Shown here: positions 2,856-60,914 of the stretch, piece after piece
How the letters are laid out: each line of letters begins with the position of its first letter
How positions within the stretch are numbered: position 1 is the stretch's first letter
Source: Mytilus trossulus
Taxonomy: Eukaryota
NCBI RefSeq assembly: GCF_036588685.1
Contig: NC_086376.1
Coordinates: 36,332,001-36,396,000, forward strand
DNA: 64,000 nucleotides
Direction of reading: 5' to 3'
The notes under the pieces: model-generated
The model's database searches: none
Seen by the model: the letters and a program-made list of their open reading frames with translations, nothing else
What the model was told of the DNA's origin: nothing
Position numbers and translations under genes: made by a program

Positions 2856-3580
2856 TTATCGGCGACCACCTCGACCTCTACCACGACCCCTGCTTCCACC
2901 ACGACCTCGTCCACGACCACGATATCCTTGATTTCCTCTGTCATGGTAGTCGTCTCCATACCCGTCTGCATTAAATTCTCCATTTCTCCCTTCAGATCTT
3001 CCATTATAATATTTGTAATCTTCCTGGCCATCGACACGTCCAGCCGAACCATTATTATTATTACTACCATCCCATTTATTTCCTCTTCCCCTAGCCGGGG
3101 ACTTGCTTTGAAAACCTTCCTCTGCCTGATGTTTATTTTGGTATCTCTTCGGACTTTTTTCTGCATGGAATTTGGCCGATGACGGTATATGTTGTTTGTC
3201 ATTCTTATTAGGGTTTCTTGTTTTCTCATTTGTCGTCTCCACTTGCATCGCTTTTTCCATACCCTTGTAACGACCTCTACGAGATTGTCCTTGGAAACCG
3301 CGGAAGTTTTCACTATTACTTTTGTTTCTCGCAGGATTCTTTAACTTCTTAAACGAATTCATATCTCCAACGTCTTCACTGAAATCAGCTTGTTTGTCTT
3401 TACAAAAAGTACTTCTTTTACCTCTAACAGTTGTCACCTTGGTCTTTTTATTGGTTTTTGCCGTTGGAAGTCCGTGTGTGACGAAACGTGGTCCATCATC
3501 ATACTGGAACTGTGTTTGTTGATTAACATTTCCCTTACAAATCACACACGAACTGTACATGATCGTTGATACAGCATGCC
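2856..3580 (-). CDS. ZNFX1: Terminal coding exon of the ZNFX1-like gene (second half of RZ-like finger plus RG/RGG-rich tail)
   Basis: Acceptor tcattttcAG|GG at 3582-3581 is phase 1 and matches the donor at 4253. The join reads WTICQNG-HAVSTIMYSSCVIC, restoring the W-x-x-C-x-N-G-H motif of ZNFX1 C-termini. Spliced CDS 6406+725=7131 nt (2376 aa), ending in RGRGRGRGGSRGRGRGRGGRR. Confidence 0.82.
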
Positions 3581-3764
3581 CTGAAAATGACAAACGAATA
3601 ATTTATTGTATGACAGATACATACATGTAGGTATATTTTATTTTAACTGAATTGGTATTTTACAATAGTTAACAATTTCATGAAAACAATTAATCTAAAT
3701 ACAAAACTGATATTAAAGACAAACATTTAAAAAAATCGATTTTCTTTATGGACTCTTTTTGGAC

Positions 3765-3875
3765 AGTTGTTCTCCATTCGTTTGATGTATTTCATTATTT
3801 GATTTTGCCATTTGTCTAGGAACTTTCCGTTTTGAATTTTCCTCGGAGTTCAGTATTTTGTGAATTTACTTTTTG
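3765..3875. repeat. Fragment of a high-copy interspersed repeat in the ZNFX1 intron
   Basis: The ...ccattcgtttgatgt...ttccgttttgaattttcctcggagttcagtatttt sequence recurs at about 29985-30090 and, inverted, at about 39075-39230. Confidence 0.7.
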
Positions 3876-4253
3876 TTATAGCTTTCCAAATATTTATTCT
3901 TATATGGGTATCAAAACATTTGGCTCCAAGTTCTCAAGACATGTAAATAAATTCGAGAAAAGCATATTTGATAAGAAAATACAATAATAATGTTAACGTA
4001 AACGTTGTTTTATGTTTCTGTGAAATTCTTTATCAAATTATAAATTATGCTTTTTTTTTTTTTTAAGAACTTAAGAATAATCTATTGTGAATCGCAAGCC
4101 TAGTCTGCAAAGAATTTGTTGTAAATATCAACTTTGTTGGAGCTTCGAACATGTCTTGTCCGTCCTGGACAATATAATTGCAACATAACCCTTCCAATGG
4201 AGTGCTAAAATAGAGTGTTATTACATAACATGATGTGATAAAAAAAATACTAC

Positions 4254-7200
4254 CATTTTGACATATTGTCCATTCGCTCTTATGTATGCCAAACACATTC
4301 TGTAATTGCGGATATCTTCTGGTATTTGTCAAGTATCCATCTCCCTCCATGTCAGCAATAAACGGTCTTAATATTTTATTTAGCTGCTCCCTTTTTAGAT
4401 ATTTCTTCATCAAGAGTACAACTACAACTATATCATGGCCTGTTATTGATAAATGACCATTAATGTCGGTAAATATGCCATCATTTTCTTCAAAAAAAGT
4501 TTCAATCGACTCCACCAGTTCTGGTGGGAAATCTTCTGATTTTTGTCTCACAGGCTCCCCTATGAATTCCGGAAACCAATCAGCATTATAGAATTTACTT
4601 AATAATTTTGGGTTTGTCGTGAAAAGGCACAATAGCCATTGGATATGCAAACTGAATATATTCTCAGACAATTGCAAGTAATCTTTAAATGATTGTGCAG
4701 TTTCAATATCGTTATGAATGCATTCGGTCAATTCCTCTGCATCTTGAAATTCTTTATCAAACCAATATGTTCGCCGTGTGTGCTGAACGACATGAAGATA
4801 TGTTGCAATGCTTGTTGTATACTCTTCGAATAATGGGAGCATTCCAGCATCACATGCAGGATACAACGTTTTGAAATTGATTCGTACGTTACGAACCACT
4901 TTTTTGGCATCTTCTAGTACCATTTTCTGTCTTTTCAAAATCCGTTCATATCTGGGATGATAATAGATAGTTGCATCACAGCATGGACATTCGGACAATA
5001 AGTCATTCTTCATTTTATCCATACAATCATCGAGAAAACTGCTTTCAAAAGAGTGACGACATTGTGTCAAAGTAACAATTTTACTGTCTTTAGTAACATC
5101 TTTACAAACAAACATTTCCGGTTTACAATCAACACACTTCAGTGGACATGGTTCGCCACAGTAACCAGGACATTGATGGCCGCAAGACAAAGTCTTATCA
5201 CAAACCTTATTGCAGCTTTGGTGATTGCACTCTTCAAAGCATAGTTTGGTACAACTATAATGTTTACATGCCCATGGACATTTTTCTTCACATGGCTTGC
5301 ATGGATCAATGCATTTAGAACGACATTTCGAATGGGCACATACAAATAAGCAAGACTTTTGGCACGGACTGCACTTCATGCACGTTTTACTTTGACAGGT
5401 ATGGCCACACGACATTTTTTTTCTGCATTGGCTTGTACATTCACTATGATCATTCATTCTGCTTGCATGACACGGCCCCGAACAAACATGTCCACATAAC
5501 ATAGTTTTTGCACACTTTTGATCACAAATTTCTTTTTTTGTATTACTGCATGCTACTTTTATAACATGGTTGCAGGAAAGAGTCTTGTCTATGACAACCT
5601 TGCATGGAGATAATTTTGTACTTTCTATTTTCCAACATGGTACAGATACAGTATGTCCACAGTCGTCACGCGTGTGTGTAACATCCTCTAAACATTTATT
5701 ATTTGGTAGAATCATACTTCTTTCCTGCCAGCATTTAACTTTAGCCGAATGCCCACATTTTTCCAATTTTATCTCAACTTCTGTGGTACATTTTACGTCG
5801 GAAACATTTACTGAACATAAAACTATTTTTCTATGCTGACACTCAGGCAAATACTTTAAGACTGCAAATTTACAAGGTACAGTTTCGGGGTTAATATGGC
5901 ATTTCATTTTCTGAGTATGGCCACATGAACTTAGAATTTTCTTCACCATTGATGTACACAGATATACCTTAGGGTCAGCTGAACATGGGATACTTTGTTG
6001 GTGTTTGCAACGTTCTAAAACAATTTTAATAAGCTGTTCGCAATCACAGGAAATTGGGAAATGACATGATTTCTTGCATTGGTGGTCATTTTTGCAAGTT
6101 TTGTTGCATGCGTCAGTACATTTAATTGAACTTCTTTTGTAACATTCGTGTGTCTTGGAATGTTTGCATTCAAAGACAGTTGTAACATTTTCTCTGCATT
6201 TAACCGATTCAACATCCTGATGGCACAGGAGTTTTATTTTATGGCCACAGAATGGGAATTCTTTTTCAACTTTCGCACTGCATTTGTGTTCATTGTGATA
6301 ATTCGTATCAGAACATTTCCTTTCATATTCATGACCGCATTTGACTCTTTTGTCTGGAATAACTACCTGACATGTGTTATTATGGACGTAGTTGGAATCG
6401 TAACAATGTCTTCTGTAGCTATGATCACACGATAACCATTGTTCAGTTACAATATCATTGCATCTATGAACCATCTCATACAATTGGTCATGGCACTGCT
6501 TTTGATATTCGTGCCCACATGATGTTCTTTTCATTGTTACAATAACTCTGCAAATAACGCGAATTTCAAAGGATGTATTATAACATTGCCGTTCAATCAC
6601 GTGGTCACAGGATGATCGTTTTTCGATTATCTGAACTCTACAAGGATTCAGCTTTTCAAAACCTGTATCATAACATTGGCGTTTAAACTCATGACCACAA
6701 TTTGATCGTGTTTCAATTAAGACTGTGTCACATTTGTGGCGTTTTGGATCAACATGACATTTTATGTGTGCTGTATGCCCACACTGTAGTTCTTTGTCAA
6801 CAATGGATTTACAGAGAACAGTACTTGGATCGACGCAGCATTCCATTAAAGCAGGATGCTCACATAATAATGTTCGGGTTACTTTAGTTGGGCATGGATA
6901 TTCAGAATAATCCAAATGGCACTCGAGATTGATCGTGTGATGACATTTAAGCTCTCGTGTCGTTATTGCACAGCATATACAGTCAGAATCAAAATGACAT
7001 CCCTTTGAACACCTATGCCCTTCTATGCATGTCTCCGAGCATTGTTTTAAGCATTCATATGTTGTATGTTCCTTGTCAAATGGATGACAATCGTATCGGC
7101 ATGCATGTCCACATTGTAATCGAAATTCACATGGAAGATCACAACCCCCATTTTTTACTTTCTTGAAGTCGCTAGGTAACTCTGCGAAAATTCCTTCGTT

Positions 7201-10200
7201 TGCTGGATGATTTTGACAGTACAGTGGTAGTGCTTTTCCAAAGGATGTGTATTTATGGAAAGCGTCGTTTTCATTATTGACGTCTTCTTCAATTTGTAGT
7301 TTTCTAATTATAGTCTGCCAGTGTTTAGACCTTGTTGTCAACGTAGAGCTGTTCCCTATTATAAAAAGTCCTTGTTTTGCTCTAGACAAAGCCACGCAAA
7401 TTCTGTTTTCCCGATTTAAGAATCCGATATCGCCTCTCGCATTGCTACGCACTAATGACAAAAGTATGATTTCATTTTCTTCGCCTTGATAGTTGTCAAG
7501 CACACATATATTTACTCCCTCGAATTTTGATCTTGGCATTTTTTCTTTTAAGCAAAACATCTGACCAGTGTATGCCGCAATTATTGTTATATCAGATGGT
7601 TTATATCCCTGCTTTAGCAAATAAAGACAAAGTTCCTTGAGGTATTCAGCTTCGTGTTCATTTGAATAACTTCTGCCTTCATCTTTGAAAGCTTCTTGTT
7701 TGTTATGTGTGATGAAGAATAAGCTCTTACGAATCCCTTTAATCGGTGGATATTCGTATACATTTTCGTTGTCTATAAGAACATCATATATATGGCGTAC
7801 CAATTCAGAAATTTCCGGTCTCATTCGATGCTGTTGCTGTAGACAATGGTAACTTAGGTCGTTCTTCACCATTCTTTCAAACAAAGACACAGATAAATTG
7901 AATTTTATGGCAAGCTCATGCACTGCTGGTTTTGGTTCCAATTGCTTATGGTCACCAATCAAAATTAAATGTTTACATCTTGGACTGATGGCAGTCACAA
8001 TGTGAGCCTCCGGTACTTCTGCCGCTTCTTCTATAATTGTGATTAGAGGTCCAACTTTGTTTAAGGATTCACTGTATCGTGCTGCATTGGTTGTAGTCAT
8101 AGCAATAACCGAAGCCTGTTGCATGATATATTCGTCTACTTCCATACTATTACGTTTGTAGTTGTCAAATACCTCATTAAATTCCTTAACACTGTCCTTC
8201 AGTTGTTCATGTAGTATAACAATGTATTGCCTTAACCAATACCTATACAGTTGCCAACGCTCCTTCATGGACAGTGTCCAGATATTTTGGATTTCCTTTA
8301 CTTGAAATTCTGACAAGTTTTCCCCATAATGCAATTCTTTTGTTGCTTTCTCTTTTTCCAGACGAAAAATAAGTTTAAATTTGTTTTCAAGCTTTTTTTT
8401 CTTTTTAAACTGAAATGAACTTTTGTATTGTTTGTCCAGATCGAGGCCTATTGAGTCTGGTTTACACATTAAGCCAACATCATCAACATCAATGTACCGC
8501 TCGTTGTAAGTATATTCTGCATCAGAAATCACTTTAGTAAACTTTTCTTCGTTAGGTTCAAGCGCCAGAATATTGAGCTGATCGTGGATTTCTTTGTCAG
8601 TTTTTTGGTTTTGATAGTATTTATCCACTTCTTTAAACCAGGAATCCGTTGACACATGTAGCCACTGCAACCATGCAGAACTTGTGTCATCTCCAAACTG
8701 ATTTGCATGATGTTCTGAAAGGACACATTCCACAACATTAAACCACAGAACAATATTTTTGCTTTTTAAGACGTCGATTGTGTCTTTAATCTTCTTTATT
8801 TTTCTTTTAACTGCACCTGCTTTATCAAGTACACCAACTCGATGATCATCAAAGTCCCATCGAACTTTTCTTCGTATGTTTTGTATCGAAAGCTGTTCAA
8901 GCTTAGGATTTTTACATTGGCGTCCAAATCTAACTACTCTGGGGAAACGACCATCAAATAAATTTTCTGGCAAAAAATCAACAATCCCTTCAACAAATTG
9001 ATCTAATGCATGGTTAGTGTAACAAACAACTAACATATATGGCTTCGGTAATGATGAAGGACCTTGATATTTTTCCTGTAAATCGCCATCCTCCTGAATA
9101 TCAGAATCCTCTTGTAACCATCTGTTACTATTATGCAGTAATGCTTTAGCAATTTGCAATCCAAGGTGAGTCTTACCAGTCCCGGGTGGACCTTGGATAA
9201 GCACAAACTCTTTTGTAAGTGCAGAAATAAATGCTTTTCTCTGAGATTCGTCCATTTGCAATATGCTTGTCGAAGGCCAGTCTTCCTGAAACATCTTTAC
9301 ATTAATTTTTGGTGTCTGTTTAGCAATAGTGTTTCTACGATTTAACCCATGTGTGTTTTCTATGTCAATGTGGCAACTTCGAATAATAGGTCTAAGATCA
9401 TACTCACAATCTTGTGATATGTATGATGGTATATTTACTTCTTTTTCACAATCAACAAGATATCGTTGGAAGGGGAAAGTGTCTTCATCTATGCATTGCA
9501 ATGCTTTGAGTACATGCTTGTACGCTTCAAAATATGCTGACGTAGGTTCTATCATCATACCATATGTATTTCGTGGCAGCTTTATGTTGGTTCCAACATT
9601 AAAAACTTGTACAGCAAAGCATCCTGTGTCTTTTAAAGCTTCTCGTTCACTTTCAGCTACTACAACGAAGAAAATTGTATTGAACCGATCAAACGAAACA
9701 AGCAATAATGTACCATAAATAAGTCTCTTTGATTTCATCCAGTTGATGCGTTTACGATGGTCTGGGTCTAGTTTTATTTCAAACACTTCGCCAGATTCTA
9801 TTGAAGTGCTTTGTTTCGTTACCAGCACGTCCCTATATACGAGACCAGTTTCTAATCTAAAAATTCCACTCCTACTTTCTTTATCTTTTTGTTTGAACTC
9901 CGTAAGAGCATCTCGGAGAGGTGACACACAGTCTTCCCTATACAACCTAAACTGTACATCTAAATAATGGTCTAAATACAAATATTTCCCATTAACTTTG
10001 TTTCGTCTTAAGAAATTTGCTGCATTTAATACGTCATTATGGCCAGGAATAACTGACATAGTTCGGAAATCCTCTGGAGGAACACATTTGTCTTCAGCGT
10101 CTTGTTTTGTCAAATGTTTTGGCTTTGGTCGTTCTTCACAAACCTTTAGTATATCCTTTTTCAATTCAGAAACAACGCTAAGCATCTTCTCTTTATCTTT

Positions 10201-10659
10201 GTATTCATCAAATTCGCTCACTTGTTCATTCAAAAAATCTACTAGTCCAATAACGTGTGGAGTTGTACACAAATGAGGCATGCATTGGAATAGTTCTTGA
10301 AGGATTGTTAAATAATCGTTAAGTAGACAATGAAAGTCATGATCACGTGTGTTATTGCATGTCACTCCTACAAGTAATGGAATGCTCCGGTGCTTTATTA
10401 TGGTTGAATCAGACAACATAATCAATAACTGAAAGACTTCCTGTTTTTTATTCGGATTCTCACAAGTAGAAGCCCTTGCAATAATATGGACAAGCAAGGA
10501 TACAAAATCGTCTGATAGTTTCTTCTTGTCTATCAATTTATCAAAAAAGTCCATCCTCTTGACCAATATCTCTAATAACTCCTCACTCTGTAGATATGAT
10601 CTGTATAAATTCACTATGAGATCTTCTGGTTGTATCTTGCCTGGACTTTTTGACGCCAT
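4254..10659 (-). CDS. ZNFX1: ZNFX1-like (NFX1-type zinc finger-containing protein 1) SF1/UPF1-like RNA helicase, main coding exon
   Basis: ORF 4063-10665 has ZNFX1-type motifs: YLDVQFRLYRED, SKRLIYGTL, AYFEAYKHVLKALQ, Walker A IQGPPGTGKT, VCYTNHALDQF, Walker B IIEEAAEV, LIGDHKQL, SLFERM, QHRMRPEI, LDNYQGEE, NRICVALSRAK. These are followed by about 24 CxH/C zinc-finger units and a CRHSF...CPCC...PRY RING-like module. First ATG is at 10659, just downstream of an acceptor at 10688-10687; phase-1 donor G|GTAGTA at 4254/4253. Confidence 0.93.
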
Positions 10660-10843
10660 TGTCAAAGTGTTTATCGGTTTGATTACCTAAAACGACAAAT
10701 AACACATTCTAATTAAAAGACTTTCAAATACTTCTGTGAAGGAGACGAGACTGATTAAAGTCCTTAAGCAATCATTTTGTCAATGAACCTAATTATTGAT
10801 CGTTCCAATAACAAATAGTTCATGCATTTTGAGATTATTAGAG

Positions 10844-12038
10844 AACTAGAGGCTCTAAAGAGCCTGTGTCGCTCACCTTGGTATATGTGACTTAAACAAA
10901 GGAAGCAGACAGTTCATGACAAACTTGTGTTTAGGTGATTGTGATGTGTTTGTACATCTTACTTTAGTGAACATTCTTGCTGCTTACTATTATCTATCTA
11001 TAATGAAATTGTCCGTGTAGTTTCAGTGGAAAATGACCAATTTGGTCATTTTACTTATTTTTGAGTCTTAAATTGCTGTACATTATTGCTGTTTACAGTT
11101 TATCTCTATCTATAATAATATTCAAGATAATAACCCAAAACAGCAAAATTTCCTTAAAATTACCAATTTAGGGGCAGCAACCCAACAACGGGTTGTCCCA
11201 TTCATCTTACAATTTCAAGGCAGATAGATCTTGATCAGATAAACAATTTTACCCCATGTCAGATTTGCTCTGAATGCTTTGGTTTTTAAATAATAACCAA
11301 AAACTGCATTTAATCTCCATGTTCTATTTTTAGCCGTGGCGGCCATCTTAGTTGGTTGGCCGGGTCAAAAAACACAAATTTAAAACTAGATACATCAATG
11401 ATGATTGTGGCCAAGTCTGTATTAATTTGGCTCGATAGTTTCAGAGAAGAAGATTTTTGTAAAAGATCATGGAGATTTACGAAAACTGGTTAAAAATTTA
11501 CTATAAAGGGCAATAACTCCTAAAAGGGTCAACTGACCATTTTGGTCATGTTGACTTATTTGTAAATCTTACTTTGCTGAACATTATTGCTGTTAACAGT
11601 TTATCTCCATCTATAATAATATTCAAGATAATAACCCAAAACAGCAAAATTTCCTTGAAATTACCAATTTAGGGGCAGCAACCCAACAATGGGTTGTCTG
11701 ATTCATCTGAAAATTTCAGGGCAGATAGATCTTGACATGATAAACAATTTCCCCATGTCAGATTTGAATGCTTTGGTTCTTGAGTTATAAGCCAAAAACT
11801 GCATTTTACCCCTATGTTCTATTTTTAGCCATGGCGGACATCTTGGTTGGTTGACCGGGTCAAAAAACACAAATTTTAAACTAGATACATCAATGATGAT
11901 TGTGGCTAAGTTTGGTTTAATTTGGCCCAGTAGTTTCAGAGGAGAAGATTTTTGTAAAAGTTAACGCCGGACGACGGACGACGGACGCCAAGTGATGAGA
12001 AAAGCTCACTTGGCCCTTCGGGCCCGGTGAGCTAAAAA
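10844..12038 (-). mobile_element. Non-autonomous Helentron/HINE-like element with internal ~500-bp tandem repeats
   Basis: Subterminal inverted repeats gctcacc (10871) and ggtgagc (12026). Terminal hairpin gctcacttggcccttcgggcccggtgagc next to an A run. (GACG)-type microsatellite at about 11965-11990. Two related internal units start at about 11035 and 11535. Second hairpin aggctctaaagagcct at the other end. Confidence 0.8.
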
Positions 12039-12545: not shown

Positions 12546-13302
12546 ATTCATTTGTTGAAACACTGATATGAAGTCATTTGTTTGTTGTGTGAATATCCAA
12601 GCAATAAAGCGATTGTTTAACAGATTGAAGGTTTTAAAACCAACAATGTAATCTAGTGGCAAAATTCCAGATCTTTTTGACAAGTTATACTAAAACATAC
12701 GTTTTAAAACTTGTAACTTGTAATATATTGTCACGTATTGATTTGAAAATAGCAATACAGGATAAAAGTATTAGTCACGGTGTGTCTTTTTAAAAATATC
12801 TCCAAATATATTATGATATACAATTAAAACTGCGTATATTTAGCCACTTACATGCTGTGTAATAATTTGTATCTACTGACATTTTAAGATCTGAACATAA
12901 ATTTGTAACCCTTAATAATAAGTTTATTCAAAAGACCCCACTGAGTGCACATGGATCGTATCTAAGTTTACGAGCCCTATAAGCAACATCGCGTTAAAAC
13001 GTTTTTGTAAAGATCTTCATTAAACGTTGGAAACAATACGTGTAGATATACGAGTAGATCCCGAGGGAATTTGATAATACAAGAAAGAAAATCTCAATAA
13101 TTGTAGCAACAACAAAAAATAATTTTGTCACTCATTTTTGAACACCCTACCCATACTTATTTTAACTTCCCTTCTGAAAAAAAATGTTTTTTTTTAAAGT
13201 ATTTTTGAAGCAAACAATGGAGAAATCTCTATCCCCTGAATTCCAAAACAAGATAGTGATCCTTCTTATGAAAATATCTGGATCCGCCACTGTATATCTT
13301 AA

Positions 13303-14147
13303 TGTCCGCGTCACACTGTCCCGATTTTTATATACGATGGACACCCGAATGCGAAAATTGTTAGTTCGAACGAAGTTGGTCCCGATCTCGTTAAAATACA
13401 AAAAAGTGACCGAAGCAAGTACGATGAATAACAAAGTCTATGCGATGGTGCCGAAATCAAATACGATAGCAAAGGATGGACATACGAAGGAATACCGAAG
13501 ACGGTACTGAAGCTTCATATCTAAGCCGAAGCCTACACGATGGATCACGAAGGCTACACGATGGAGTACGAAGGCTACACGATGGATTACGATGATGGCG
13601 TGATGTCTTAAAGATGTCGTTTACAGCTTACGCATGTTACGATGCATTTAAATTATATGCCGAAGGCATCACACGTTTTAGATTGTTTGATGTGTGCACT
13701 AGTCTAAATAATCACCAATAATTATGCCCATGTTTACTGATCTATCTTAAAGGTAAGGTAATGGGTTGGTTGATCCCTTTTATTCAAAAAGAGCTCTTTC
13801 CAGGAGAATATCTTAATAATATAGTCAAAAAGAAGGATGTGGAAAAAAGCAACAAATGCGGCAAAATATGACATATAGAAAACAAAATGGTTATGGAGTT
13901 CCCGGTGACATTACGATGGTGAGGATGGTGATACGAACTCAATACGAACCCTCAACATCGGACGCACCTTCGGCGATTTTTTGGCATGTTAAAAAAAATT
14001 AGAATCCTTCCCGAAGTTGTCCCCGAAGGCTAGAAAAAGTGGCCGATGGTTAAAGATGGCGCTACGAATAGTCCGATCTTGATACGATCAGTCCCGATTT
14101 TGAAAATGTGCATAATCGTATTGCCATCGGTCAGTGTGACGCAGGCA
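13303..14147. mobile_element. PIF/Harbinger-like MITE (845 bp)
   Basis: Imperfect TIRs TGTCCGCGTCACACTGTCCCGAT and (rc) TGCCTGCGTCACACTGACCGAT, flanked by TAA on both sides (13300-13302, 14148-14150). Internal repeats of cgaaggctacacgatgga at about 13530-13590. Confidence 0.8.
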
Positions 14148-16224: not shown

Positions 16225-16960
16225 TTAATTATGGTTGTAACGCGTCTTCTGATTGGTTGACGTTGTTTTGATTATCAGCTCATAGACATAATTAGGTCAT
16301 GTGACCGTGACCGTGACGCCAACGTTTTTTTCATGATTTACTCCGGTTTAAAATGGAATTTAGAATTAAAATTATAAGAAATAACTGTAACATTTTATCT
16401 GACTATTCGAAATAACATAAAATGTGGTGCACACTATAATTTAAAAGGTTGCACTTTGTAAAAACAGCTGTTTCTCAAAACACGCCTCTTTTGGGGAGAT
16501 CTTTAATATTCATAGAAAGTTAATTTTGTTTACATTCTCGATATCAGTTATGCTCTCTGTGTTCCATCTCGTAGAGACAAAAGTTAAGAATGTTACCAGT
16601 AAATTTACATGTGCATATTGTTTACTATGAAATCTGTGGTAACCTTTCATTCGAGGTACGGGTAGTTAAGAAAATTAGTGTTAGTTTAAACTCTGAAGAG
16701 TTTAGGGCATATTAACGTTGAAAATATGCCGCACAGCCCTATATTTTGACCTTTGAAAAATTAATGTGGTGCATATGAACTTTCAATTGTGGGAAAAGAT
16801 TTGTTTCAAAACTTTATAGTAAAAGTGGTACAGTTTCAGCCATAAAAGGAGTTCCTATGTTAAATTGCATTGTCAATATTTACAGAAATGCAATCTAAAA
16901 TAACCCACTACGCGGGTTATTTAGTGTGCACCACATTTTTTATGTTAACAGTCATTCCTT
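16225..16960. mobile_element. Palindromic non-autonomous element interrupted by a ~460-bp insertion
   Basis: Inverted arms taacataaaatgtggtgcacact (about 16413-16435) and agtgtgcaccacattttttatgtta (about 16923-16947); central hairpin aataacccactacgcgggttatt; unrelated sequence at about 16437-16897. Confidence 0.5.
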
Positions 16961-20779: not shown

Positions 20780-21241
20780 GATACTACAGGAAAACACACA
20801 GGGTCGCCTAAACCACCAATGATTAATACAATAATTAACTCGTCAACACCCGTACTAACAACAGTACCAGCAGCAACACCAACAACACCACCGACAACTC
20901 TAATTACCAAATCAACAACCATTCCATCGACAACTATAACAACCGTTCCATCGACAACTTCAACAATAAAATCAACAAAAGTACCATCTACAACTTCCAA
21001 AATAAAATCAACAACCGTTCCATCAGTAAGTTCAACAACAAAATCAACAACAGTACCATCGACATCTTCAACCACGGTACCATCGATCACTTCACCAACA
21101 ATAACAGCAACTGTACCACTGACTAATACAGAAACAAAAACATCAATAACTGTACCAGATTCAACTTCTGTACCAACTATAACAACAGTAAACAAATCAG
21201 ATATACCACCAACGACAGCAACGTCAAAATCTGAGCTAACG
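20780..21241 (+). CDS. Mucin-like type I membrane protein, exon 2 (Thr/Ser/Pro-rich ectodomain)
   Basis: Acceptor ttttcttAG|GAT, in frame with ORF 20819; degenerate KSTTVPS-like repeats; phase-0 donor ACG|GTAAGT. Confidence 0.85.
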
Positions 21242-23974
21242 GTAAGTTTATCTTTATTCTTTGTCATGTACGCAATTGTGTCGCAGAATCTTATACCAAA
21301 AGTGTTTTCGACCACCTTCGATCGCTTTAATTTTGTAAAAATCTTATAGTACATAAATTCAGCTGCGATACTTTAATGTATTTATAGATTGATAGTCTTC
21401 TTTTTTCGAAATAATCTTACTGTGATAAATTCGGTGAAAATCGGATACTAAATATTAAAACAAGTTGCTTTCTTTAAAAAAAAAAAAAAAAAAGAAAAGC
21501 AATACATGAACCTAAGACGGCTGACTGCCGGGTCACAAAAAGAGTGTTGCTGAATTTGTTTTTTTTCTTTTGCATTTAAATAATTGACTGTGAATAGAAG
21601 AAGCCAGTTGAAAGTATATATTTACAGCTTCTATTTGAATGGGCCGATTTGAATAGTCATTTTAAAGCCTAGACTATTATATTTATTACTTGGGAATGTA
21701 CATAATTTTTCCAATTATAACCCTTTGGCAAATTCTAATTTCTACTTACCGGATGACTTATGCAAATTACACAAACCTATCGCAATATAAATTTATGCTC
21801 TCAGTTTGTTTTATAATCTGGAATTCTGGATGCATTTATTTTATCTATCCTATCTTTATATTTTGTTTCCTACATGAATGCCTTTATACCCAACTCGTAT
21901 TTGAAGCTGTCTTTACTCATGGTAGATGTTTTATATGTGGTGAAACCTGTAGCATGCAATTTATTCGGACCTCTTGCGAACAGACTTATTTTGGTCTCAT
22001 AAAACATCTCAAATTTTAAGGATTTCCTGATTTTACTTAAATCAATTCAAACATTATACAGGGAAACTTAGTTTTGCCGAAGAATTCCTTAATTCAGAAG
22101 TTTATTAATACCTGTATACACTTTCAAAATAACCAATTTATATAAAAAGGTATGTAGATATAAAAAGATACCAGAATTAAAATGATGTACACAAGACACG
22201 AGTTAAGTCTAAAAAAAGCAACAGTGACGCTCGAATGAAAAAAGTTAAAAGGCTAAATACATAACAAAGTTTAGGAATCTATTCCTTGGGTAGATAATCC
22301 TTAGCTTTTCAAAAAGGTCAAAGTTTATAATAGGACAGTGACTCAAAAAGAAACAAAAGAGAAACAACTCGAGGTCAGAATACCTTTAGTAATGATGATC
22401 ATGCTTGAAAGTCACAATGTAAATCTCTTTCTGCCGTGTCTTGAATTTAGATAACAAAAACGAAAATAAGCTTTCACGAGTGAATCTAATAGTATTGCAT
22501 GCCAGTAGTATTTTAGAGCACGAAATAGTAAAAAGAAAGCATCTCACTGATACCCAGGAAAAGAATACGCATTTGCGTCAACACATATCTTAATATAATA
22601 GTTGAATTCGAATTGACATTTTATCCGGAATTTTTGACAACGCAAAACGATAGTGTGCTTTTGAAATGTGATCTATAATGTGAATGAATCAAGACGTGTA
22701 AGATAGTAGGTCAACACAATGAATACAATATTCAAAACCGTACCATAGTAAAAATATGTAGATGCTATAATGTTAAACTATTTTTATACAAACAAACAAA
22801 AATTGAATTAAAGTTTTTTAATGAACTAACGTTAGTTTTTCTTTTTCAAATTCTTTTGAATATATATAACATTAATAAACACGAACGTCAAGTATTTACG
22901 GATGGACATTGTATTTATCGAATGAATCTATTTCTAAATTATTACATTCCACTATGTGAATATATTACTATACAAAATATAAGCAAAATCAACTAAATCC
23001 ATACTAAAACAATATAAAATAATCAACATTATGGTTGTAATTAAATTTTGTTGTGAATATTGTAAATTATTTTTATGGTTGTTGTGAGCAGCAAGGATTT
23101 AAAATAATGCTTTATGAAATAAGAACACACAAGTGTTTTTATTCACGACCGTTTAAAATCTAAATATTTGATAAATTCATCTTACTTTCCGTTTTATGAT
23201 TATATTACAATACAAAAAAATAAAAATTATTACTAATCAAACCTAAAAACTAAAACGGTATGAGATAATAAACGTAAAAATATAATAATTATTGTTTGTA
23301 AACATTTTTTTTTGTAGGATGCAAGAATTTTATAAGATTTTATTTTTATTTTTCCTTTACAAATGAATATTTAAAAATACCAAAGCAGAGTATATTGTCA
23401 TATAAAATACTTATTCCTTAATTGCAACTCTGAAAATATTCTGATTTCAATCATTGTTAGTTTCTTCAGAAACATAAATACAGTTTATATTATATATATA
23501 TTTCTTTCATTCCGATTAAATTAAATACGTTTGATAAGAATATTATCTTTCTGTTTTCCGATCTAATATTAATAGTTTAACCAGTATGTTCTCCACGTAA
23601 GTCTATAATGAAATACACAGTCAGTATCCCGTGGTTAAATCTTCAAACATAATTAGTTAACATGTTATCGAGACAACGTTATAATTGACCCAGATACACA
23701 CATCGTACAGTAGTCGTTTTAAAACAGATATAATTGCGTCGTCAAGGGACATCACGGGACCATATCAAAGCCGTAGATAACAACCTCTTTAGACCTGTAT
23801 AAATGACAGAAAACTTTCGAGACGTTCCGAGAATTTTATTCTGACTTCCGGCTGAGAGATATCGAGTGGCCCATAGACACATCCAAAACTCACCAATATA
23901 TAAGCATGAACCCCTCAGGGGGTTCATGAAAAAAAAAAACCGGAATTACATAAAGGTTTGTTCTGATCGATCCA

Positions 23975-27539: not shown

Positions 27540-28046
27540 GTTAGTGCAACTATTACTGGTTCTACAAACACTCCATCACCAACACCAATGAAAATTCCGA
27601 CCCCTATCACTTCTCAAAGACCCCAAACAACAGATGGTACAGAATCAAGTGGAACAAGTACAGAAGAAACAAATAGCACAGTGGCAACTACAAGTACAGA
27701 AGAAACAAATAGCACAGTGGCAACTACAAGTACCAAGACAGCAACACTCAAACCAAGAAAAACAACTCATAAGTCGACAGTAACAGAAACGTCACATAAA
27801 CCGACAATGCCTACTAAAGGAACAACTGAAGCACAAAATGGGAGTAAGAGTAAATCTAAATCGTACGACAGAGAACTTGTTATAATATTCGGTGTTATGT
27901 TAGGACTAATGTTTGTTGTCATTGTTATTTTTGGAATACATAAGTGTCGCCATAGAAACAAAGAATCGGACGATTTACCAATGTCGTCTGCGGACAAATA
28001 TAGAAACGGTGGAGAGGACGTTACCATAGCAGCATCTTCGTTTTGA
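27540..28046 (+). CDS. Mucin-like type I membrane protein, exon 3 (Thr-rich stalk, TM helix, short cytoplasmic tail)
   Basis: Phase-0 acceptor AG|GTT at 27538-27540, in frame with ORF 27588; 36-nt tandem repeat TSTEETNSTVAT x2 with NST sequons; TM LVIIFGVMLGLMFVVIVIFGI followed by HKCRHR; ends AASSF-stop. Three-exon product is 346 aa. Confidence 0.85.
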   Translation, partial: VSATITGSTNTPSPTPMKIPTPITSQRPQTTDGTESSGTSTEETNSTVATTSTEETNSTVATTSTKTATLKPRKTTHKSTVTETSHKPTMPTKGTTEAQNGSKSKSKSYDRELVIIFGVMLGLMFVVIVIFGIHKCRHRNKESDDLPMSSADKYRNGGEDVTIAASSF

Positions 28047-30889: not shown

Positions 30890-33800
30890 TTAATTTTGGG
30901 AGTCTGGTGGATTGTTATTTTCATCCATTTTTATTCGATATCGGTTACGTCTGGCGTTTGATGTTTTTGGTTTTGGTGCATTTGGTGGCATAGGATTAAA
31001 TTGTGCAGGTGACATATGAATAGTTTGTGTCTTGATATTCGTTCCAGAAAGGACTTTTATAATTTGCCAATTTGAAGACAGAGTTTCTGTTGGTTGACTT
31101 TGGTTTCCGTTCGTTATGCAATCTGGAATAAGTTTTTTCACAAATGTTTTCATGGCTGATTTCAATGTACCACCATTTTCTCCTGCACCTTCAAAATCGC
31201 CTATTGTACTTTCTGAGCTCGAGCTTTGAATGTCATCTAAGGTATCACTTATGCTTTGAATGACTGCAATATACTTATCATGCAGTTTCTTAAATACTTC
31301 TATCGCTTTGCTGTAACTCATATTTTCGATGACAGGAAACAGATCTTTTTCTTGCACCTGATAAAACCCAATCAGTTCGTTATCATCCAGTTTGTTAAAG
31401 ATGTCTTCAGTTGGATATGTATCACCCACTGCAATATCCATCATAGTACGATCATATTGGTCTTCTTCACTGTTGCTGACTGATTTTTCTCTTTCTATCT
31501 GCTCTCTTATATTCTCAAAAATCTGCTCTGGTTCTGGTTTTGACATTTTATTGGAAGCTATTGTCTCATTGGCCTGCTGTTGTTTTGATTTAGACATTTT
31601 ATGTGACGCTGTTGTCTCATCAGTCTGCTCTGGTGATGATAAAGGCACTGATTTCACAACTTCACTTTTATCTTTCTTTTCATTACTCATCTTTTTTACA
31701 ATTAACATCTTTTTCAAATTTAGTGACCAAGTATGAACTTGATCTGGTTCTGGGTAGCTGTCCGGGTTTTCTATATATGTTTGCTTTTTGACATCCTTTT
31801 TCTGTCTTTCTCTGGCACAATATTTTCCAGTAACGATTTTGCATACTTTTTCAATTTTGCTTTTAGGTATATAGCAACATTTATCAGATGCCTTATGTAG
31901 CCTGGAAAATCGGTACTTTCTCTCAGAGATGTAGCGATCTTTACTAGATGTCTTTTGCAGCCTAAAAGTTGGAAACTTATTCTCCCAGTTTATCCTTTTC
32001 AAAGCTAATTCTGAGTTCATATCTAAAGCTCCACCGTTTGTTGTTGTCTCATTGGTTTTCTGTGGAGCTGATATTGACGTTGATTGCGTTGGAATAACTT
32101 CACTTTTCTCTTTCTTTTCATTATCACTTTTGCTTTTAGGGATAAAGCATTTTTCATCAGATGAAAGATGCAGTCTTGAAAATCGGTACTTTCTATTACT
32201 GGCGTAGTTAATTTTACGAGATGTCTTTTGCAGCCTAAAATTTCTATATTGATTTTTCCATTTTGGCCTTATAGAACCTAATTCTAGGCTCATATCAAAA
32301 ATTTCATTGGAAGCTGTTGTCTCATCTGGTTGCTGTGGTGCTGGTTTAGACATTGATTCTGTTGACATATGTTTACTTTTATCTTTCTTTTCATCTCTGA
32401 TCTTGTTTACAATTAATTTCTTTTTGGAGTTTTGTGGCAAGTGCTGCAATGGTGGAAGCAGTTTGTGAGTACCAGGGCGATTAGTGAAGGGGTGTTCTTG
32501 CACGCATGTTTGCTCTTTGTCAGGAAACACTGGTGGTAGTTTAAGAGTAGTTTCATGTAGTTCTTTCGCGTATATCATCTTCTTGTTAGGTAACAATGGT
32601 TGTCGTTTTAGAGTCTCTGAGTATAACTCTTCCACGTATTTAAGATTCTTGTTTGGTAGCAGTAGTGGTAGTTTTACTGGAGTAGAGGGATACTTTTCCT
32701 CGTATTTCATTTTCTCCTTACCTAGCAATTGTGGCAGTTTTACTGTAAGAGAAATTTTCGATCTCTTAGCATGCTTTTGGAGCTCGTTCCTTTGTGTCTC
32801 CTCCTTTCTAGAATAATTTTCAGTTTCCTTGCTTTTCATAGATAGTTCAAACATCTCATACTCAACTTCAAGTTCATGATTCAGGAAACTCAGTTCTGAC
32901 TCGGATCTACGCAATGTGCAGCAAGAGTCAACACACTCGCCTGTAATGCACTTGTCGGATTCTAGTATATTTTCATGGATTGGTGTCATTACACGTGTTC
33001 TACCAGTTCTCCCAATATATAATGTGGTGTCATCAATAATGACAGCGTTGGCTTCGGTCATTTTTCTTTTATACTTGTTTAAGCTACCATTTGAAGAAAT
33101 CAGAAGTTCCTCGTTGAACAGTTGGTTATGTTCGCGTTTCACGTGAAGAAGGAATTTTGAAAAAGGATTTTGAATTCTTGAGCGGTTGCTCCTTTCAATT
33201 GTTTTGTAAACATTTTTCAGGGTTTTCTGTTTATCAAGAAAAAACTGTTTCTGTGTCCTTAAGTAATGAAGCCTTTCTTTCATGGAGATTTGTAAATTGT
33301 GCATGCATCGCTTCATGACATGTCTGTCAGCCTCAATAAAATCGATCCATTGCTCTATTTCTTGCCTCAGCCTATTCTCGGAAAGTTTGCTTGGTTGCAT
33401 GTTTTGTAGCTTGTTGGAGGTTGTATGGATTGCTTCCTCTTTTTCTTGAATTAAACACTTCCAGTTGGCAAGCAATCTGAAATCATGTTTTATTTTCGTT
33501 CTTAATGTAATGTATAACGATTTGCTACATAAAATAGAGCTCCTAGTATATAACATTATTTCCTCACATAAATCAGTTGTATATATAGAACTGGACTATT
33601 ATCATAACACCAAAATGTAGTTGCTAAATTTACTAACCCATTAAAAACAAAAAGTATGGGCATTTCTAATTTACGATTCTAAAGTAGTGATAATACAAAT
33701 ACGAATGCCAAACCATTATATAATTTTACGTCTTTCTGTGCTGGAGGTATATATCAGTGTCTCTTTTTTTAAGTTTTTGTAAATTTCATTTACATTGACA

Positions 33801-45836: not shown

Positions 45837-48800
45837 TTAGGAGTCTGTAGGATTGTTATTTTCGTCCATTTTTCTGCGATATCGTTTACTTCTGGCGTTT
45901 GATGTTTTTGGTTTTGGTGTATTTGGTGGCATAGGATTAAATTGTGCGGGTAACATAGGAATAGTTTGTGTCTTGATATTCGTTCCAGAGAGGACTTTTA
46001 TAATTTGCCAATTTGAAGACAGAGTTTCTGTTGGTTGACTTTGGTTACCGTTCGTTATACAATCTGGAATAAGTTTTTTCACAAATGTTTTCATTGCTGA
46101 TTTCAATGTACCACTATTTTCTCCTACACCTTGAAAATCACCTATTGTACTTTCTGAGCTCGAGCTTTGATTGTCATCTAAGGCATCACTTATGCTTTGA
46201 ATGACTGCAATATGCTTATCATGCAGTTTCTTGAATACTTCTATCGCTTTGCTGTAACTCATATTTTCGATGACAGGAAACAGGTCTTTTTCTTGCACCT
46301 GATAAAACCCTATCAGTTCGTTATCATCCAGTTGGTGAAAGATGTCTTCAGTTGGATATTCATCACCCATTGCAATATCCATCATACTATGATATTGGTC
46401 TTGTGCTATGTTATTGACCGATTTTTCTCTTTCTGTCTGCTCTCTGATATTCTCAAAAATCTGCTCTGGTTCTGGTTTTGACAAAGGCATTGATTTCACA
46501 ACTTTACTTTTATCTTTCTTTTCATTACTCATCTTTTTCAAATTTAGTGACCAAGTATGAATTTGATCTGGCGCTGGGTAGCTGTCCGGGATTTCTATAT
46601 ATGTTTGCTTTCTGGCATTCCTTTTTTGTGTTCCTTTGGCACAATATTTTTCAGTTACGATTTTGCATACTTTTTCACTTTTGCTTTTAGGTATATAGCA
46701 ACTTTTATCAGATGCCTTATGTAGCCTGGAAAACCGGTACTTTCTCTCAGAGATGTAGCGATCTTTACTAGATGTCTTTTGCAGCCTTAAAGTTGGAAAC
46801 TTATTCTCCCAGTTTACCCTTTTCAAAGCGAGTTCTGAGTTCATATCTAAAGCTCCACCGTTTGTTGTTGTCTCAGCAGTTTTCTGTGGAGCTGACATAG
46901 ACGTTGATTGCGTTGGAATAACTTCACTTTTCTCTTTCTTTTCATTATCACTTTTGCTTTTAGGGATATAGCATTTTTTATCAGATAAAAGATGCAGTCT
47001 TGAAAATCGGTACTTCCTATTACTGGCGTAGTTAATTTTACGAGATGTTTTTTGCAGTCTAAAAGTTCTATACTGATTTTTCCACTCTGGCCTTATAGAA
47101 CATAATTCTAGGCTCATATCAAAAATTTCATTGGAAGCTGTTGTCTCATCTGGTTGCTGTGGTGCTGGTTTGGACATTGATTCTGTTGACATATGTTTAC
47201 TTGTATCTTTCTTTTCATCTCTGATCTTGTTTACAATTAATTTCTTTTTGGAGTTTTGTGGCAAGTGCTGCAATGGTGGAAGCAGTTTGTGAGTACCAGG
47301 GCGATTAGTGCAAGGGTGCTCTTGCATGCATGTTTGCACTTTGTCAGGTAACACTGGTGGTAGTTTAAGAGTAATTTCAGGTAGTTCTTTCGCGTATATC
47401 ATCTTCTTGTTAGGTAACAATGGTTGTCGTTTTAGAGTCTCTGAGTATGACTCTTCCACGTATTTAATCTTCTTGTTTGTAAGCAGTAGTGGTAGTTTTA
47501 CTGGAGAAGAGGGATACTTTTCCTCGTATTTCGTTTTCTCCTTATCTAGCATATGTGGCAGTTTTAGTGGAAGAGGAGTTTTCGATCTATTAGCATGCTT
47601 TTGGAGCTTGTTCCTTTGTGTCTCCTCCTTTTTAGAATGATTTTCAGTTTCCTTGCTTTCCATAGATAGTTGAAACATATTATACTCAACTTCAAGTTCA
47701 TGATTCAGGAAACTCAGTTCTGACTCGGATCTACGCAATGTGCAGCAAGAGTCAACACACTCGCCTGTAATGCACTTGTCGGATTCTAGTATATTTTCAT
47801 GAATTGGTGTCATCACGTGTGTTCTACCAGTTCTCCCAATATATAACGTGGTGTCATCAATAATGACAGCGTTGGCTTCGGTCATTTTTCTTTTATACTT
47901 GTTTAAGCTACCATTTGAAGACATCAGGAGTTCCTCGTTGAACAGTTGGTTATGTTCGCGTTTCACGTGAAGAAGGAATCTAGAAAATGGATTTTGAATT
48001 CTTGAGCGGTTGCTCCTTTCAATTGTTTTGTAAACATTTTTCAGGGTTTTCTGTTTATCAAGAAAAAACTGTTTCTGTGTCCTTAAGTAATGAAGCCTTT
48101 CTTTCATGGAGATTTGTAAATTGTGCATGCATCGCTTCACGACATGTCTGTCAGCCTCAATAAAATCGATCCATTGCTCTATTTCTTGCCTCAACCTATT
48201 CTCGGAAAGTTTGCTTGGTTGCATGTTTTGTAGCTTGTTGGAGGTTGTATGGATTGCTTCCTCTTTTTCTTGAATTAAACACTTCCAGTTGGCAAGCAAT
48301 CTGAAATCATGTTTTATTTTCGTTCTTAATGTAATGTATAACGATTTGCTACATAAAATAGCGCTTCTTAAACATGATCCTAGTATATAACGTTATTGTC
48401 TCACATAAATCAGTTGTATATATAGAACTGGACTATTATGAATATCATAACACCAAAAAGTAGTGGCTAAATTTAAAAACAAAAAGTATGGGCATTTCTA
48501 ATTTACGATTCTAAAGTAGCGATAATACAAAAACGAATGCCAAACCATTATATAATTTTACGTCTTTCTGTGCTAGAGGCATATATCAGTGTCTCTTTTT
48601 TAAGTTTTTGTAAATTTCATTTAGTTTGACATTTCATATCCGTTTTGTGAGGGTTTTGTTTGTCGAAGATATATCATTGTCGTAAGGATGTGGCATATGA
48701 TTACGGTACATATTGCTGTACTTTATAGTTTGGGACTACTTTTTTGATATTGTCTCATATTCTGTATTTGTTTAAAGATAAACTAGACTTACTCATTCCC

Positions 48801-58166: not shown

Positions 58167-60914
58167 ATGCCGTATAGGACGTACTATGATTTGTGGTAAG
58201 TCCCTTTAACATCAAAACGCATCTAGAATATTTTTACTTCGAAATATTGCAGAACTGTCTTTGTATTTATTTTCAAATTTAGCGTAAAATCTTAGTACTA
58301 AATTTCTTCAGCGATGTGACCTTGGCTTAGAATGTTCAAGGACAGGTTAAAGGATTGAACATTCCGAACTGAGACTATGTTACTATGTGAAACAACACAA
58401 AATGGCCGAATATTCACTGTATTTAAACTAAACTGTACAGATAGTATGGCCAAACTTTCAGCGTATCAAACCTCAACTAAACTTGTAATCCAGCACATAA
58501 TGGCTGAACTTTCAGTGAAATAAAACTAAATTGAATTTATAATCCAGTAAATATGTCTCTGTCTGCTCTTTTTTCCATTCAGCATACGTCTGCTTACTTT
58601 CAGTTAATCGTTTTTGTTCTGTATTAATATTATAATCTGTGAATGTTTTGAACTTTGCTAAATTGCTTGAACATAATATATTAATAAGTAAAGTACAGAA
58701 AGATAGAAACTTCAAAATTAGTAAATTTCAGTAAATAAGAGTATTCCCAAATTTTAGAACTATAAACAATGCCCCACGCCTCACTTTGAATACAGACCTT
58801 TTTTCACTGAAACTGAAACATTGGAGGACGTTTTTCTATGCACAGACCCTAATAAATGAGTTCCTCTATTTCTTTGTCCATTTCTAATTTAAAATAGACT
58901 TTTGTAACACTTGTTTTTTGAAACTGTGTGAATATTGTTTGCCTGGGGTTAAACATCAAAACATATAATATTGTGAAAATCGAGACAGTTATTTTTCTCA
59001 TTTGAATTTTTCATATTTTTCATGACGGGGCATTTTAATAGCCGACTATATACGGTATGGGTTTTCCTCATTGCTGAAGGCCGTACGGTTGCCTATGATT
59101 GCTTACATCTACTTTATTTGACCTTTGGTGGATAGCTGTCCCATTGGCAATCGTACCACATGTCCTTTATATTTTTATAGAGATGAATAACAGATATTTA
59201 TAAACTTTTCTTTACAGGAGAGGACAAAATCCGGAGGACGAAATCGTCGAAGAAATGGGTGAAGAAGAAGATTTAGAAGAAATGCAGAAACTAGACGAGA
59301 AGTTGAAACAGTTTGAGGAAGATGAGTTAACCACTTACGGTAATTTGATAAAAATAAACTAAACTACAAACTAACCCCTATCTTATACAATGTAGTTAGT
59401 TTTAATAAAACAACGCCACATAATGTGAATGTGAAAAATCAGTACAACATAATTTAATTGTGAAAAATCAGTACAAGTATTCTTGTAGTAAGTCAAATTA
59501 CATACGCCTATAACATCAAAAGAGAAGCAAATGTATTGATATACTATCAAACAGTTGTCAAGTAGGAAATATTAATTGTTAAGAAAGGACATTACATAAT
59601 GGTCTGCAGTTGAATACCCATAATAGGTAGAATGTCAATACTATGTTGTAGCAATGGGAGAACAAATGATGAAGTGTTAAATGTTTTACATATATTTAGA
59701 TAATGATCCTCCTCCAAAAAACAACAACAAAAAACCCAAAATACATAACAAAACAAAACAAAACAAAAACAACAAAAAATAACAGAAAATAACAGAAAAT
59801 AACAGAAAAAAGAAAACCAAATGAAATTTGTTTGAAGTTACAAAAATGTAGCTGTGGATTACAATTACTACATTTTTCCTTTACAGGTTCTTCAGAAAAT
59901 ACACCAATTGACGACGATATCCCAAAGGCAACCCGAAAACGAAACATAGTTTTTGATGAAGAAAGATTTGAAGAAACTTTCTTAAAATGCATGATTTGTC
60001 GTGAAGTATACGATGAAGATGAAAAGGCACCGAAAATGTTGCCTTGTCATCATACATTTTGCCTCGATTGTTTGAATCAGATGTTCCGAGTCGAAGGCGA
60101 GTATCGACAGTCTTTAACATCTGCCTTTCGAAGTATGCCGATGGCAGTCAAAATTTGTTGCCCAACTTGCCGTGATGGATTAATATGTTCTGATCAAGAC
60201 ATTAAACGCCTTCCAAATGACACAACAATACTCGAGCTTCTAAATTACATAAAACTAACCGGGAAATCTGATGTCCAATATTGTTCAAAACACAAGATGC
60301 AACCTCTGAATTTTTTCTGCGAGCCTTGTATAACACCTGTTTGTTGTGATTGCACGGTGCTTGATCACAAAGAAAAGAATGGTCACATCGTAATGAACGT
60401 AGAAGAAGCTTTGAAAAAATACACACCAGTTTTGGATGAAACTATAACTGAAATGGACAAATCGATCAAAACCGTTGAAGAAAAGAAACAAGCACTTGAA
60501 AAGGCGGCAGAAAATATTGAACAAATTCAAAAAGAGCTTGCAGTCCAGGTCAGACAAACGTTTGATCGAATCAGAGATGCCATTGATGAACGTGAACGTG
60601 AACTTTTTAATATGTCAGAGCATGAAATAGATAAGAAACGAAACGAAATTGGCGATCAATTGGCTATTGTTCATGATCGAGAAGCTCTATTAGCAAAGGA
60701 CAGGAACAATCTTAAAAGTGCAAAAGACACTAAAGATATAAGTGCCATGTTTACCCATCATCAGTCAGCCAGAGAGGCATTAGGGAGGAAGGTAGAAATC
60801 CCGGGACCTTCTCGTGCTACTAAAGACTTTGCTGTCAGTTTTCAGTTCAATAGTAGAGCAGAAAACAATATACGGTCAACTATAAGTGTATTCGGAGATG
60901 TCAGTTTCAAATAA
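58167..60914 (+). CDS. TRIM (RING/B-box2/coiled-coil) E3 ligase-like protein without C-terminal domain; exons 58167-58195 (putative), 59218-59339, 59887-60914; about 392 aa
   Basis: RING CMIC...LPCHHTFCLDC...CPTC; B-box CSKH...FFCEPCITPVCCDC...H...GH; long coiled coil. Acceptors tttacAG at 59217 and ttacAG at 59886; donors TG|GTAAGT (phase 2) and G|GTAATT (phase 1) keep frame. The first exon is less certain than the other two. Confidence 0.88.

Follow-up and report, generated by a model that had tools for sequence, protein, structure and literature searches.

By sequence comparison, the RG-rich C-terminal tail of the ZNFX1-like protein encoded in the window (the whole 64,000-nucleotide stretch of Mytilus trossulus DNA analysed here) marks an old ZNFX1 subfamily, which forms one clade across four orders of pteriomorph bivalves and in which the residues required by human ZNFX1 for transferring ubiquitin are missing. 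We propose that this protein is a ubiquitin-independent RNA-granule helicase, in which RNA would be gathered by the helicase with the RG tail binding RNA and granule partners, and we give this reading a probability of about one half. The preliminary description of this DNA had presented the tail as the best candidate for an undescribed system in the window; we assign it instead to a subfamily of a known protein.

The ZNFX1-like gene is carried by the minus strand of the window, where open reading frames and Pfam matches delineate a 2207-codon frame (10686-4063). The tail exon is contained in a 248-codon frame of the same strand (3602-2856), in which we located all the peptides quoted initially; the protein ends with RGRGRGRGGSRGRGRGRGGRR, followed by a stop codon. 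The exon 3580-2856 is spliced in frame to the ~6.4-kb exon by way of a GT donor at 4253 and an AG acceptor that precedes 3580, and across this joint the protein sequence reads ...WTICQNG followed directly by HAVSTIMYSSCVIC... The features of the gene are as follows:

2856..3536, minus strand: RG tail with its TAA stop, residues 2151-2376, basic and predicted to be disordered (composition, AlphaFold2, pN/pS 0.30)
2859..2924, minus strand: terminal RG run, YRGRGRGRGGSRGRGRGRGGRR; the tails of the clade have in common an end rich in RG or Arg
3537..4272, minus strand: RZ-finger remnant, split by the intron (spacing relative to the human residues given in the available text of 10.1101/2025.10.14.682297; low pLDDT)
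3581..4253, minus strand: intron of 673 nt, phase 1, GT-AG (splice sites and contigs)
4948..5160, minus strand: Z-RING/Miz-like domain (alignment, with residue roles taken from the human ZNFX1 papers)
5161..7200 (limits approximate), minus strand: zinc-finger stalk of about twice the usual length (771 aa, 23 C-x-H)
7348..9849, minus strand: SF1 (UPF1-like) helicase core and ZNFX1 1B domain (Pfam and motif reading)
9850..10659, minus strand: start codon (10659) and a helical N-terminal region that occupies the ARM-domain site, devoid of an RG extension (putative ARM, from its position)
10660..10686, minus strand: 27-nt leader, from the predicted splice acceptor to the ATG (comparison with three paralogs)

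The joint 3579/4253, which skips 673 nt, was found in one contig per run in 4/4 runs examined, from 4 studies; one of these runs is recorded as RNA and three are presumed to be RNA. The database model P0001 (2376 aa, Mytilus trossulus, named ZNFX1-like by its source) has the same join and is identical over both parts searched. Comparison of the tail exon with one divergent contig (run X11), for which 26 of the 27 exon differences were counted, yielded 12 silent and 14 residue-changing differences (pN/pS 0.30, binomial p = 0.0026), showing that the exon is under purifying selection. The splice contigs and this selection rule out that the exon is part of another gene or untranslated, and its initial attribution to a translated ZNFX1 transcript is upheld. 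Capture of the exon from elsewhere is unlikely, since the position and phase of its intron match those of the canonical RZ intron, being identical in the five clade paralogs and the two canonical C3 genes checked. The tail thus appears to extend the old RZ exon.

At the other end of the gene, the leaders that precede the ATG in three paralogs are 25, 29 and 27 nt long, the 27-nt one harbouring an in-frame stop. Because these lengths are out of frame and one leader contains a stop, the 27-nt leader of the window gene is likely to be untranslated, and the same observations disfavour the presence, further upstream, of an undetected coding exon that would supply an RG region at the N-terminus. Judging from contig depth, high-copy repeats lie at about 3780-3875, 10840-12020, 13300-14030 and 16290-16900, one of them falling within the final ZNFX1 intron and another immediately preceding the big exon; the latter makes the RNA contigs uninformative on an upstream exon.

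Elsewhere in the window, two minus-strand frames of 901 and 851 codons (30890-33595 and 45837-48392) have no Pfam match and are part of a ~8 kb tandem duplication with 83-94% DNA identity. On the plus strand, an exon of a TRIM-like gene (59793-60914) encodes RING, B-box and coiled-coil regions, and two Thr/Ser-rich, mucin-like frames (20780-21349 and 27540-28046) have a hydrophobic stretch at their end, the second with a weak TMEM154 match below the cut-off.

The tail that follows the last Cys is 226 residues long (3536-2859), has a net charge of about +25 and harbours 14 RG and 2 RGG, with 9 of the 14 RG within the last 40 residues. Order-promoting residues amount to 15% in the tail, against a comparison value of 37.5%. 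AlphaFold2 modelling of the C-terminal 543 residues (alignment of 24 rows, mean pLDDT 52.7) gave pLDDT values <50 (24-38 by block) and no secondary structure for the 226 tail residues; the Z-RING and the helical region are modelled with confidence and the RZ remnant poorly (pLDDT 42-46). Composition and model thus describe clustered RG in a low-complexity, predicted-unstructured segment. Pfam found 0 families on the tail exon, a PDB sequence search with the C-terminal 382 aa gave 0 matches at E up to 1, the human entries ending at the stalk, and Foldseek returned no match to the AlphaFold2 model at E up to 0.001, with only weak RING-containing entries. The preliminary description of a disordered, RG/RGG- and aromatic-rich tail of ~220 aa was accurate as to RG content, predicted disorder and approximate length. 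The RGG label was overstated, as the motif is mostly RG/GRG (7 GRG versus 2 RGG), and aromatic enrichment had to be abandoned, F+Y+W representing 8.8% of the tail versus 8.5% of the rest of the protein and 1.5-9.7% of 24 related tails.

In PIWI and Sm proteins, dimethylated RG/GRG motifs are read by Tudor-domain proteins. The tail might similarly serve mainly as a docking tag, symmetrically dimethylated on its RG/GRG motifs and read by Tudor proteins in germ-line small-RNA granules, with self-condensation being secondary; we consider this unlikely. The excess of GRG over RGG in 6/6 tails counted and the lack of aromatic enrichment are in line with such a tag, as is nematode ZNFX-1, which has no RZ domain according to the available text of 10.1101/2025.10.14.682297 and which, going by the title of PMC9200344, interacts with the TDRD5/7-like protein LOTR-1. 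However, one run with a ZNFX1-tail transcript is labelled invertebrate gut metatranscriptome, which weakly suggests somatic expression, and the canonical paralogs carry the same RG motif at their N-terminus.

We collected 136 homologous proteins by two overlapping searches, of which the first contributed all 23 of its matches and the second the best 120 of its 337. In a FastTree phylogeny of the helicase core (666 columns, 133 of the 136 proteins, P0004, P0035 and P0050 having been dropped as incomplete), the tail-bearing mussel proteins group with scallop and ark-clam proteins with a support of 1.00. A C-terminal profile of the clade run over 1.84 billion representatives gave 669 matches; among the 150 listed, a drop from 110.6 to 88.9 bits separates the top 21, 8 of which belong to the profile or are near to it, from those below. 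Cluster look-up of 10 top matches retrieved members from Ostrea edulis and Crassostrea virginica, with the same shortened RZ and RG tails, which fall inside the clade with an SH-aLRT value of 100 in a tree of 54 chosen proteins; the C. virginica gene LOC111129399 belongs to the clade. All named members, from Mytilus (5 species), Pecten, Mizuhopecten, Ylistrum, Tegillarca, Ostrea and Crassostrea, belong to pteriomorph bivalves of four orders, and many members carry no species name. This pteriomorph group is of deep Palaeozoic age.

The clade proteins with a last exon number 24, two of them assigned by profile score rather than by tree and many of them being Mytilus orthologs and hence not independent; six more models stop before that exon. 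All 24 have a tail of 186-450 aa and neither the canonical RZ spacing nor its catalytic loop. At least 10 RG are present in 21 of the 24 tails, and the other three are RG-poor (2-4 RG), with a Lys/Arg cluster at the end. Canonical RZ spacing was detected in 54 of the 136 homologues, all outside the clade, with tails of 22-154 aa and 0-1 RG, and in 45 of 126 further proteins, with tails of 2-306 aa and 0-1 RG. No RG tail was found among these 99 proteins with an intact RZ (0/54 and 0/45), and such tails are thus not a routine companion of the intact finger. The proposed association of the tail with RZ degeneration holds within the clade, where the Z-RING motif is lost as well, but RZ decay is also common outside it in proteins that have no RG tail, and at least 10 of these, read by eye, combine a decayed RZ with a short, RG-free end.

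Individual proteins show other arrangements. The tail of P0284 of Ostrea edulis consists of some ten RG(R)GY(D/E)QGS-like repeats and is, within the clade, the one most similar to FET proteins. Outside the clade, the RZ of the scallop proteins P0071 and P0089 has decayed; their tail is long and free of RG, they terminate in a Cys/His motif, and they have kept an N-terminal RG region. The tick protein P0125, also outside the clade, has an RG run at its end after the Z-RING, with no RZ, a possible parallel to the clade tail.

A PF25396 profile search of the Mytilus trossulus genome itself revealed at least 12 ZNFX1 loci, and the tail-bearing clade accounts for 6 of the 12 found. Four loci, including the window gene, are located at C4:36.27-36.53 Mb, with the tail exon in 4/4, and the C4:18.0 and C14:42.65 loci share the shortened RZ and also encode a long tail, which is rich in RG at C14 and poor in RG at C4:18.0. 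The canonical loci, five at C3:73.9-74.1 Mb and one on C12, have PF20173 matches at the last exons of all six, and reading of the exons showed that the five C3 genes keep the RZ catalytic Cys. At locus L009 (G000:C4:36.52 Mb), the model P0024 follows its paralog for 1746 aa and then ends; the genomic frame has 2135 codons and a tail exon, and the end of P0024 is likely to be mis-called or alternative. Two canonical-type loci, L020 and L019 (G000:C3:73.93 and 74.01 Mb), look damaged, one with its big frame in two pieces and the other with a short RZ exon devoid of the catalytic His.

When the last 30 residues were removed, the tails aligned with those of other subclades no better than shuffles in 6/7 pairs, and only a close paralog aligned; no sequence homology of the tail across subclades was thus found. 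The tail has kept its composition and not its sequence, as expected of a disordered interaction region. Divergence of this kind, together with the further decay of the RZ remnant in P0030, P0040 and P0166, could also be taken to indicate a tolerated read-through appendage without function on a decaying paralog. We regard this as very improbable, given the pN/pS of the exon, the open frames of 2,044-2,222 codons in 6/6 clade loci of the genome and the retention of the tail in four bivalve orders.

Lys/Arg clusters (QQKRKKRR, RGRRKTKWKRII) close the tails of the RG-poor members and RG runs those of the RG-rich ones, making a basic C-terminal patch the most constant trait. The Arg-rich or RG patch at the tail end might thus act as a nuclear or nucleolar import signal of a nuclear RNA-surveillance helicase, the remaining tail being a spacer. 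However, many clade tails contain 20-39 RG that extend across hundreds of residues and have expanded repeatedly, which exceeds the needs of an import signal, and we consider this explanation improbable.

The other parts of the protein are those of a ZNFX1 helicase. The window protein matches PF25396 (ZNFX1), PF13086 (AAA_11) and PF13087 (AAA_12) with 71, 98 and 143 bits, against cut-offs of 27. Its Walker A, EEAA Walker B, motifs III and VI and RNA-binding F/R pair are intact, and the helicase motifs and the F/R pair are kept in the clade. Between motif VI and the Z-RING, its stalk comprises 771 aa and 23 C-x-H, with medians of 769 aa and 22 C-x-H in the clade (n=23) versus 362 aa and 10 (n=46); no zf-NF-X1 Pfam match is listed on the window protein. 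The N-terminal region at the ARM place aligns with ZNFX1 homologues, its ARM label coming from position alone. The N-terminal extension has a median length of 2 aa in the clade versus 93 aa in ordinary ZNFX1, and extensions with at least 3 RG are found in 0/24 clade proteins versus 32/43 ordinary ones.

The ligase modules are a different matter. In human ZNFX1, the RZ finger binds Zn by C1849, H1853, C1869 and C1872, and C1860 and H1881 mediate catalysis, according to the available text of 10.1101/2025.10.14.682297. The remnant in the window protein follows the pattern W2130-x2-C2133-x3-H2137-x9-C2147-x2-C2150, which retains the four predicted Zn ligands C-H-C-C (C2133, H2137, C2147 and C2150). 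However, its loop is six residues shorter (H-to-C spacing of 10, not 16) and contains no Cys that would correspond to human C1860, and Gln2159 occupies the place of the catalytic His (human H1881, nine residues after the last Cys), which is a His in 50/54 canonical proteins. PF20173 did not match P0001, P0029 or P0038, and it matched P0053 with 72 bits.

In the human Z-RING/Miz, as described in the available parts of 10.1101/2025.10.14.682297 and 10.1101/2025.09.05.674436, Zn is bound by C1591, H1593, C1619 and C1622, F1575 binds the E2 and Q1623 is the linchpin. The Zn ligands are kept in the window protein (C1867-x-H1869, C1891-P-x-C1894) and, with a clade-specific H-P-R-Y motif, are invariant in 12/12 aligned clade members. 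At the F1575 position, placed 16 residues back from the first Zn ligand by the numbering in the papers and not by the human sequence, Phe or Tyr is found in 0/23 clade versus 43/48 canonical proteins, and the F-G-x-acid-acid E2-binding motif is present in 0/23 versus 45/48. The window protein has a Val at this position and a Phe one residue before. Its linchpin is an Asp, and Asp, Glu or Gly occupies that position in 11/23 clade versus 0/48 canonical proteins. The E2-contact loop varies freely in length and sequence within the clade, whereas it is near-invariant in canonical proteins. Judged by these residues, the link of the tail with ligase decay is stronger than earlier proposed, the E2-binding motif of the Z-RING being gone too.

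In human ZNFX1, the F1575A substitution abolishes all ligase activity and stabilizes the protein, and aggregation needs ubiquitin (available parts of 10.1101/2025.09.05.674436 and 10.1101/2025.10.14.682297). We infer that the clade proteins have little or no ligase activity and hence a slower turnover. Since the Zn ligands are invariant, the domain is confidently modelled and a Phe is found one residue off, the window protein may have a changed E2 interface rather than a lost one. It could then still be a ligase through a divergent Z-RING, with another E2 or a ubiquitin-like modifier, the tail replacing only the RZ as a substrate-recruiting or acceptor arm. The invariant H-P-R-Y motif also fits this proposal, and the human Z-RING/Miz is active in vitro without the RZ finger, as reported in the same two sources. 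However, the free variation of the E2-contact loop and the linchpin substitutions speak against it, and we deem it unlikely.

On these comparisons, the RG region has in effect changed ends, from the N- to the C-terminus, while both ligase modules eroded. Because ordinary ZNFX1 mostly has an N-terminal RG extension already and the clade does not, we prefer to see in the tail a larger RG region that has moved, and not a newly acquired faculty. The original idea that ubiquitin-driven RNA clustering may have been exchanged for a phase-separating tail must be revised accordingly.

The ubiquitin-independent RNA-granule helicase that we favour takes sequence traits as its start, namely the intact helicase and RNA-binding residues, the missing RZ loop and Z-RING E2 motif, the doubled stalk and the C-terminal RG tail. 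Such a protein would load onto single-stranded RNA in an ATP-driven manner, like human ZNFX1, and would ubiquitinate neither itself nor RNA, thereby escaping the ligase-driven turnover described for the human protein. Its basic tail would be held beyond the long stalk, at the end that bears the ligase in ordinary ZNFX1. RG/RGG regions bind RNA, undergo arginine methylation and promote phase separation. The tail might thus interact weakly and multivalently with RNA and, after arginine methylation, with readers of the Tudor type, and the protein and its bound RNA would be concentrated in stress or germ granules. The protein would work alongside the canonical ZNFX1 genes kept in the same genome and would not replace them. 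More tentatively, and in our view doubtfully, the clade might represent a natural ligase-dead ZNFX1 that quarantines RNA in a second way, by condensation through its C-terminal RG arm instead of aggregation driven by ubiquitin, and that serves antiviral or small-RNA defence alongside canonical ZNFX1. All the traits are found on one branch, so that their co-occurrence represents one event and compensation is not demonstrated. In addition, human ZNFX1 polymerizes through ARM, 1C and zinc-finger contacts with neither end involved (available text of 10.1101/2025.10.14.682297), and the tail is therefore perhaps not needed for clustering.

A subfamily that has been retained in four bivalve orders, and whose helicase is intact but whose two ligase modules have eroded, provides a natural test of the function of ZNFX1 without ubiquitin, the canonical paralogs of the same cells being the controls. 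The 2022 paper on metazoan ZNFX1 by Blasi and colleagues predates residue-level work on the ZNFX1 ligase. We did not find the subfamily in the ZNFX1 literature searched, and Blasi et al. (2022) may describe the clade phylogenetically. It was not found either in the available parts of PMC11959080, PMC13710534, PMC9334734, PMC13270118, 10.64898/2026.05.15.723513 and 10.64898/2026.10.06.756944, whose supplementary alignments may show members. As summarized in the accessible portion of PMC13270118, two recent studies reach different conclusions as to whether RNA is ubiquitinated by ZNFX1 or only trapped in aggregates that depend on ubiquitin, and both hold the ligase to be essential. 'ZNFX1' matches in oyster and mussel virus-challenge transcriptomes mix two kinds of proteins under one name; oyster Znfx1 is reported to be induced by OsHV-1, with the paralog not specified in the available text of 10.64898/2026.05.15.723513.

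The closest known system is human ZNFX1 (PDB 9q9z; available parts of 10.1101/2025.10.14.682297, 10.1101/2025.09.05.674436 and PMC13710534), with which the window protein shares its domain order, i.e., N-terminal helical region, SF1 helicase with EEAA, stalk, Z-RING/Miz, helical region and RZ, as well as the helicase and RNA-binding residues and the Zn ligands of Z-RING and RZ. It differs by the lack of counterparts of C1860, H1881 and F1575 and by an Asp at Q1623. Its stalk is about twice as long as that of canonical proteins and a 226-aa RG tail follows the RZ remnant, whereas canonical proteins end ~44 aa after the last Cys. It also lacks an N-terminal extension; residues 1-140 of the human protein are disordered, according to the available text of PMC13710534. 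The canonical mussel genes on C3 and C12 and P0053 have helicase motifs and RG repeats in common with the window gene, but they match PF20173, keep the RZ catalytic Cys and fall outside the clade, and the RG run is N-terminal in the three C3 genes read and in P0053. Caenorhabditis elegans ZNFX-1, a Z-granule protein compared here by description only, is likewise without a working RZ and lives in condensates (available text of 10.1101/2025.10.14.682297). The DDX3X/Ded1/LAF-1, DDX4/Vasa and DbpA-type proteins similarly combine a helicase core with a basic, RG-rich disordered arm. In these helicases, the arm helps RNA binding and condensation. They are SF2 DEAD-box proteins for which we claim no homology with ZNFX1, and the arm of the window protein differs from theirs in that it follows a 770-aa stalk and an eroded ligase module.
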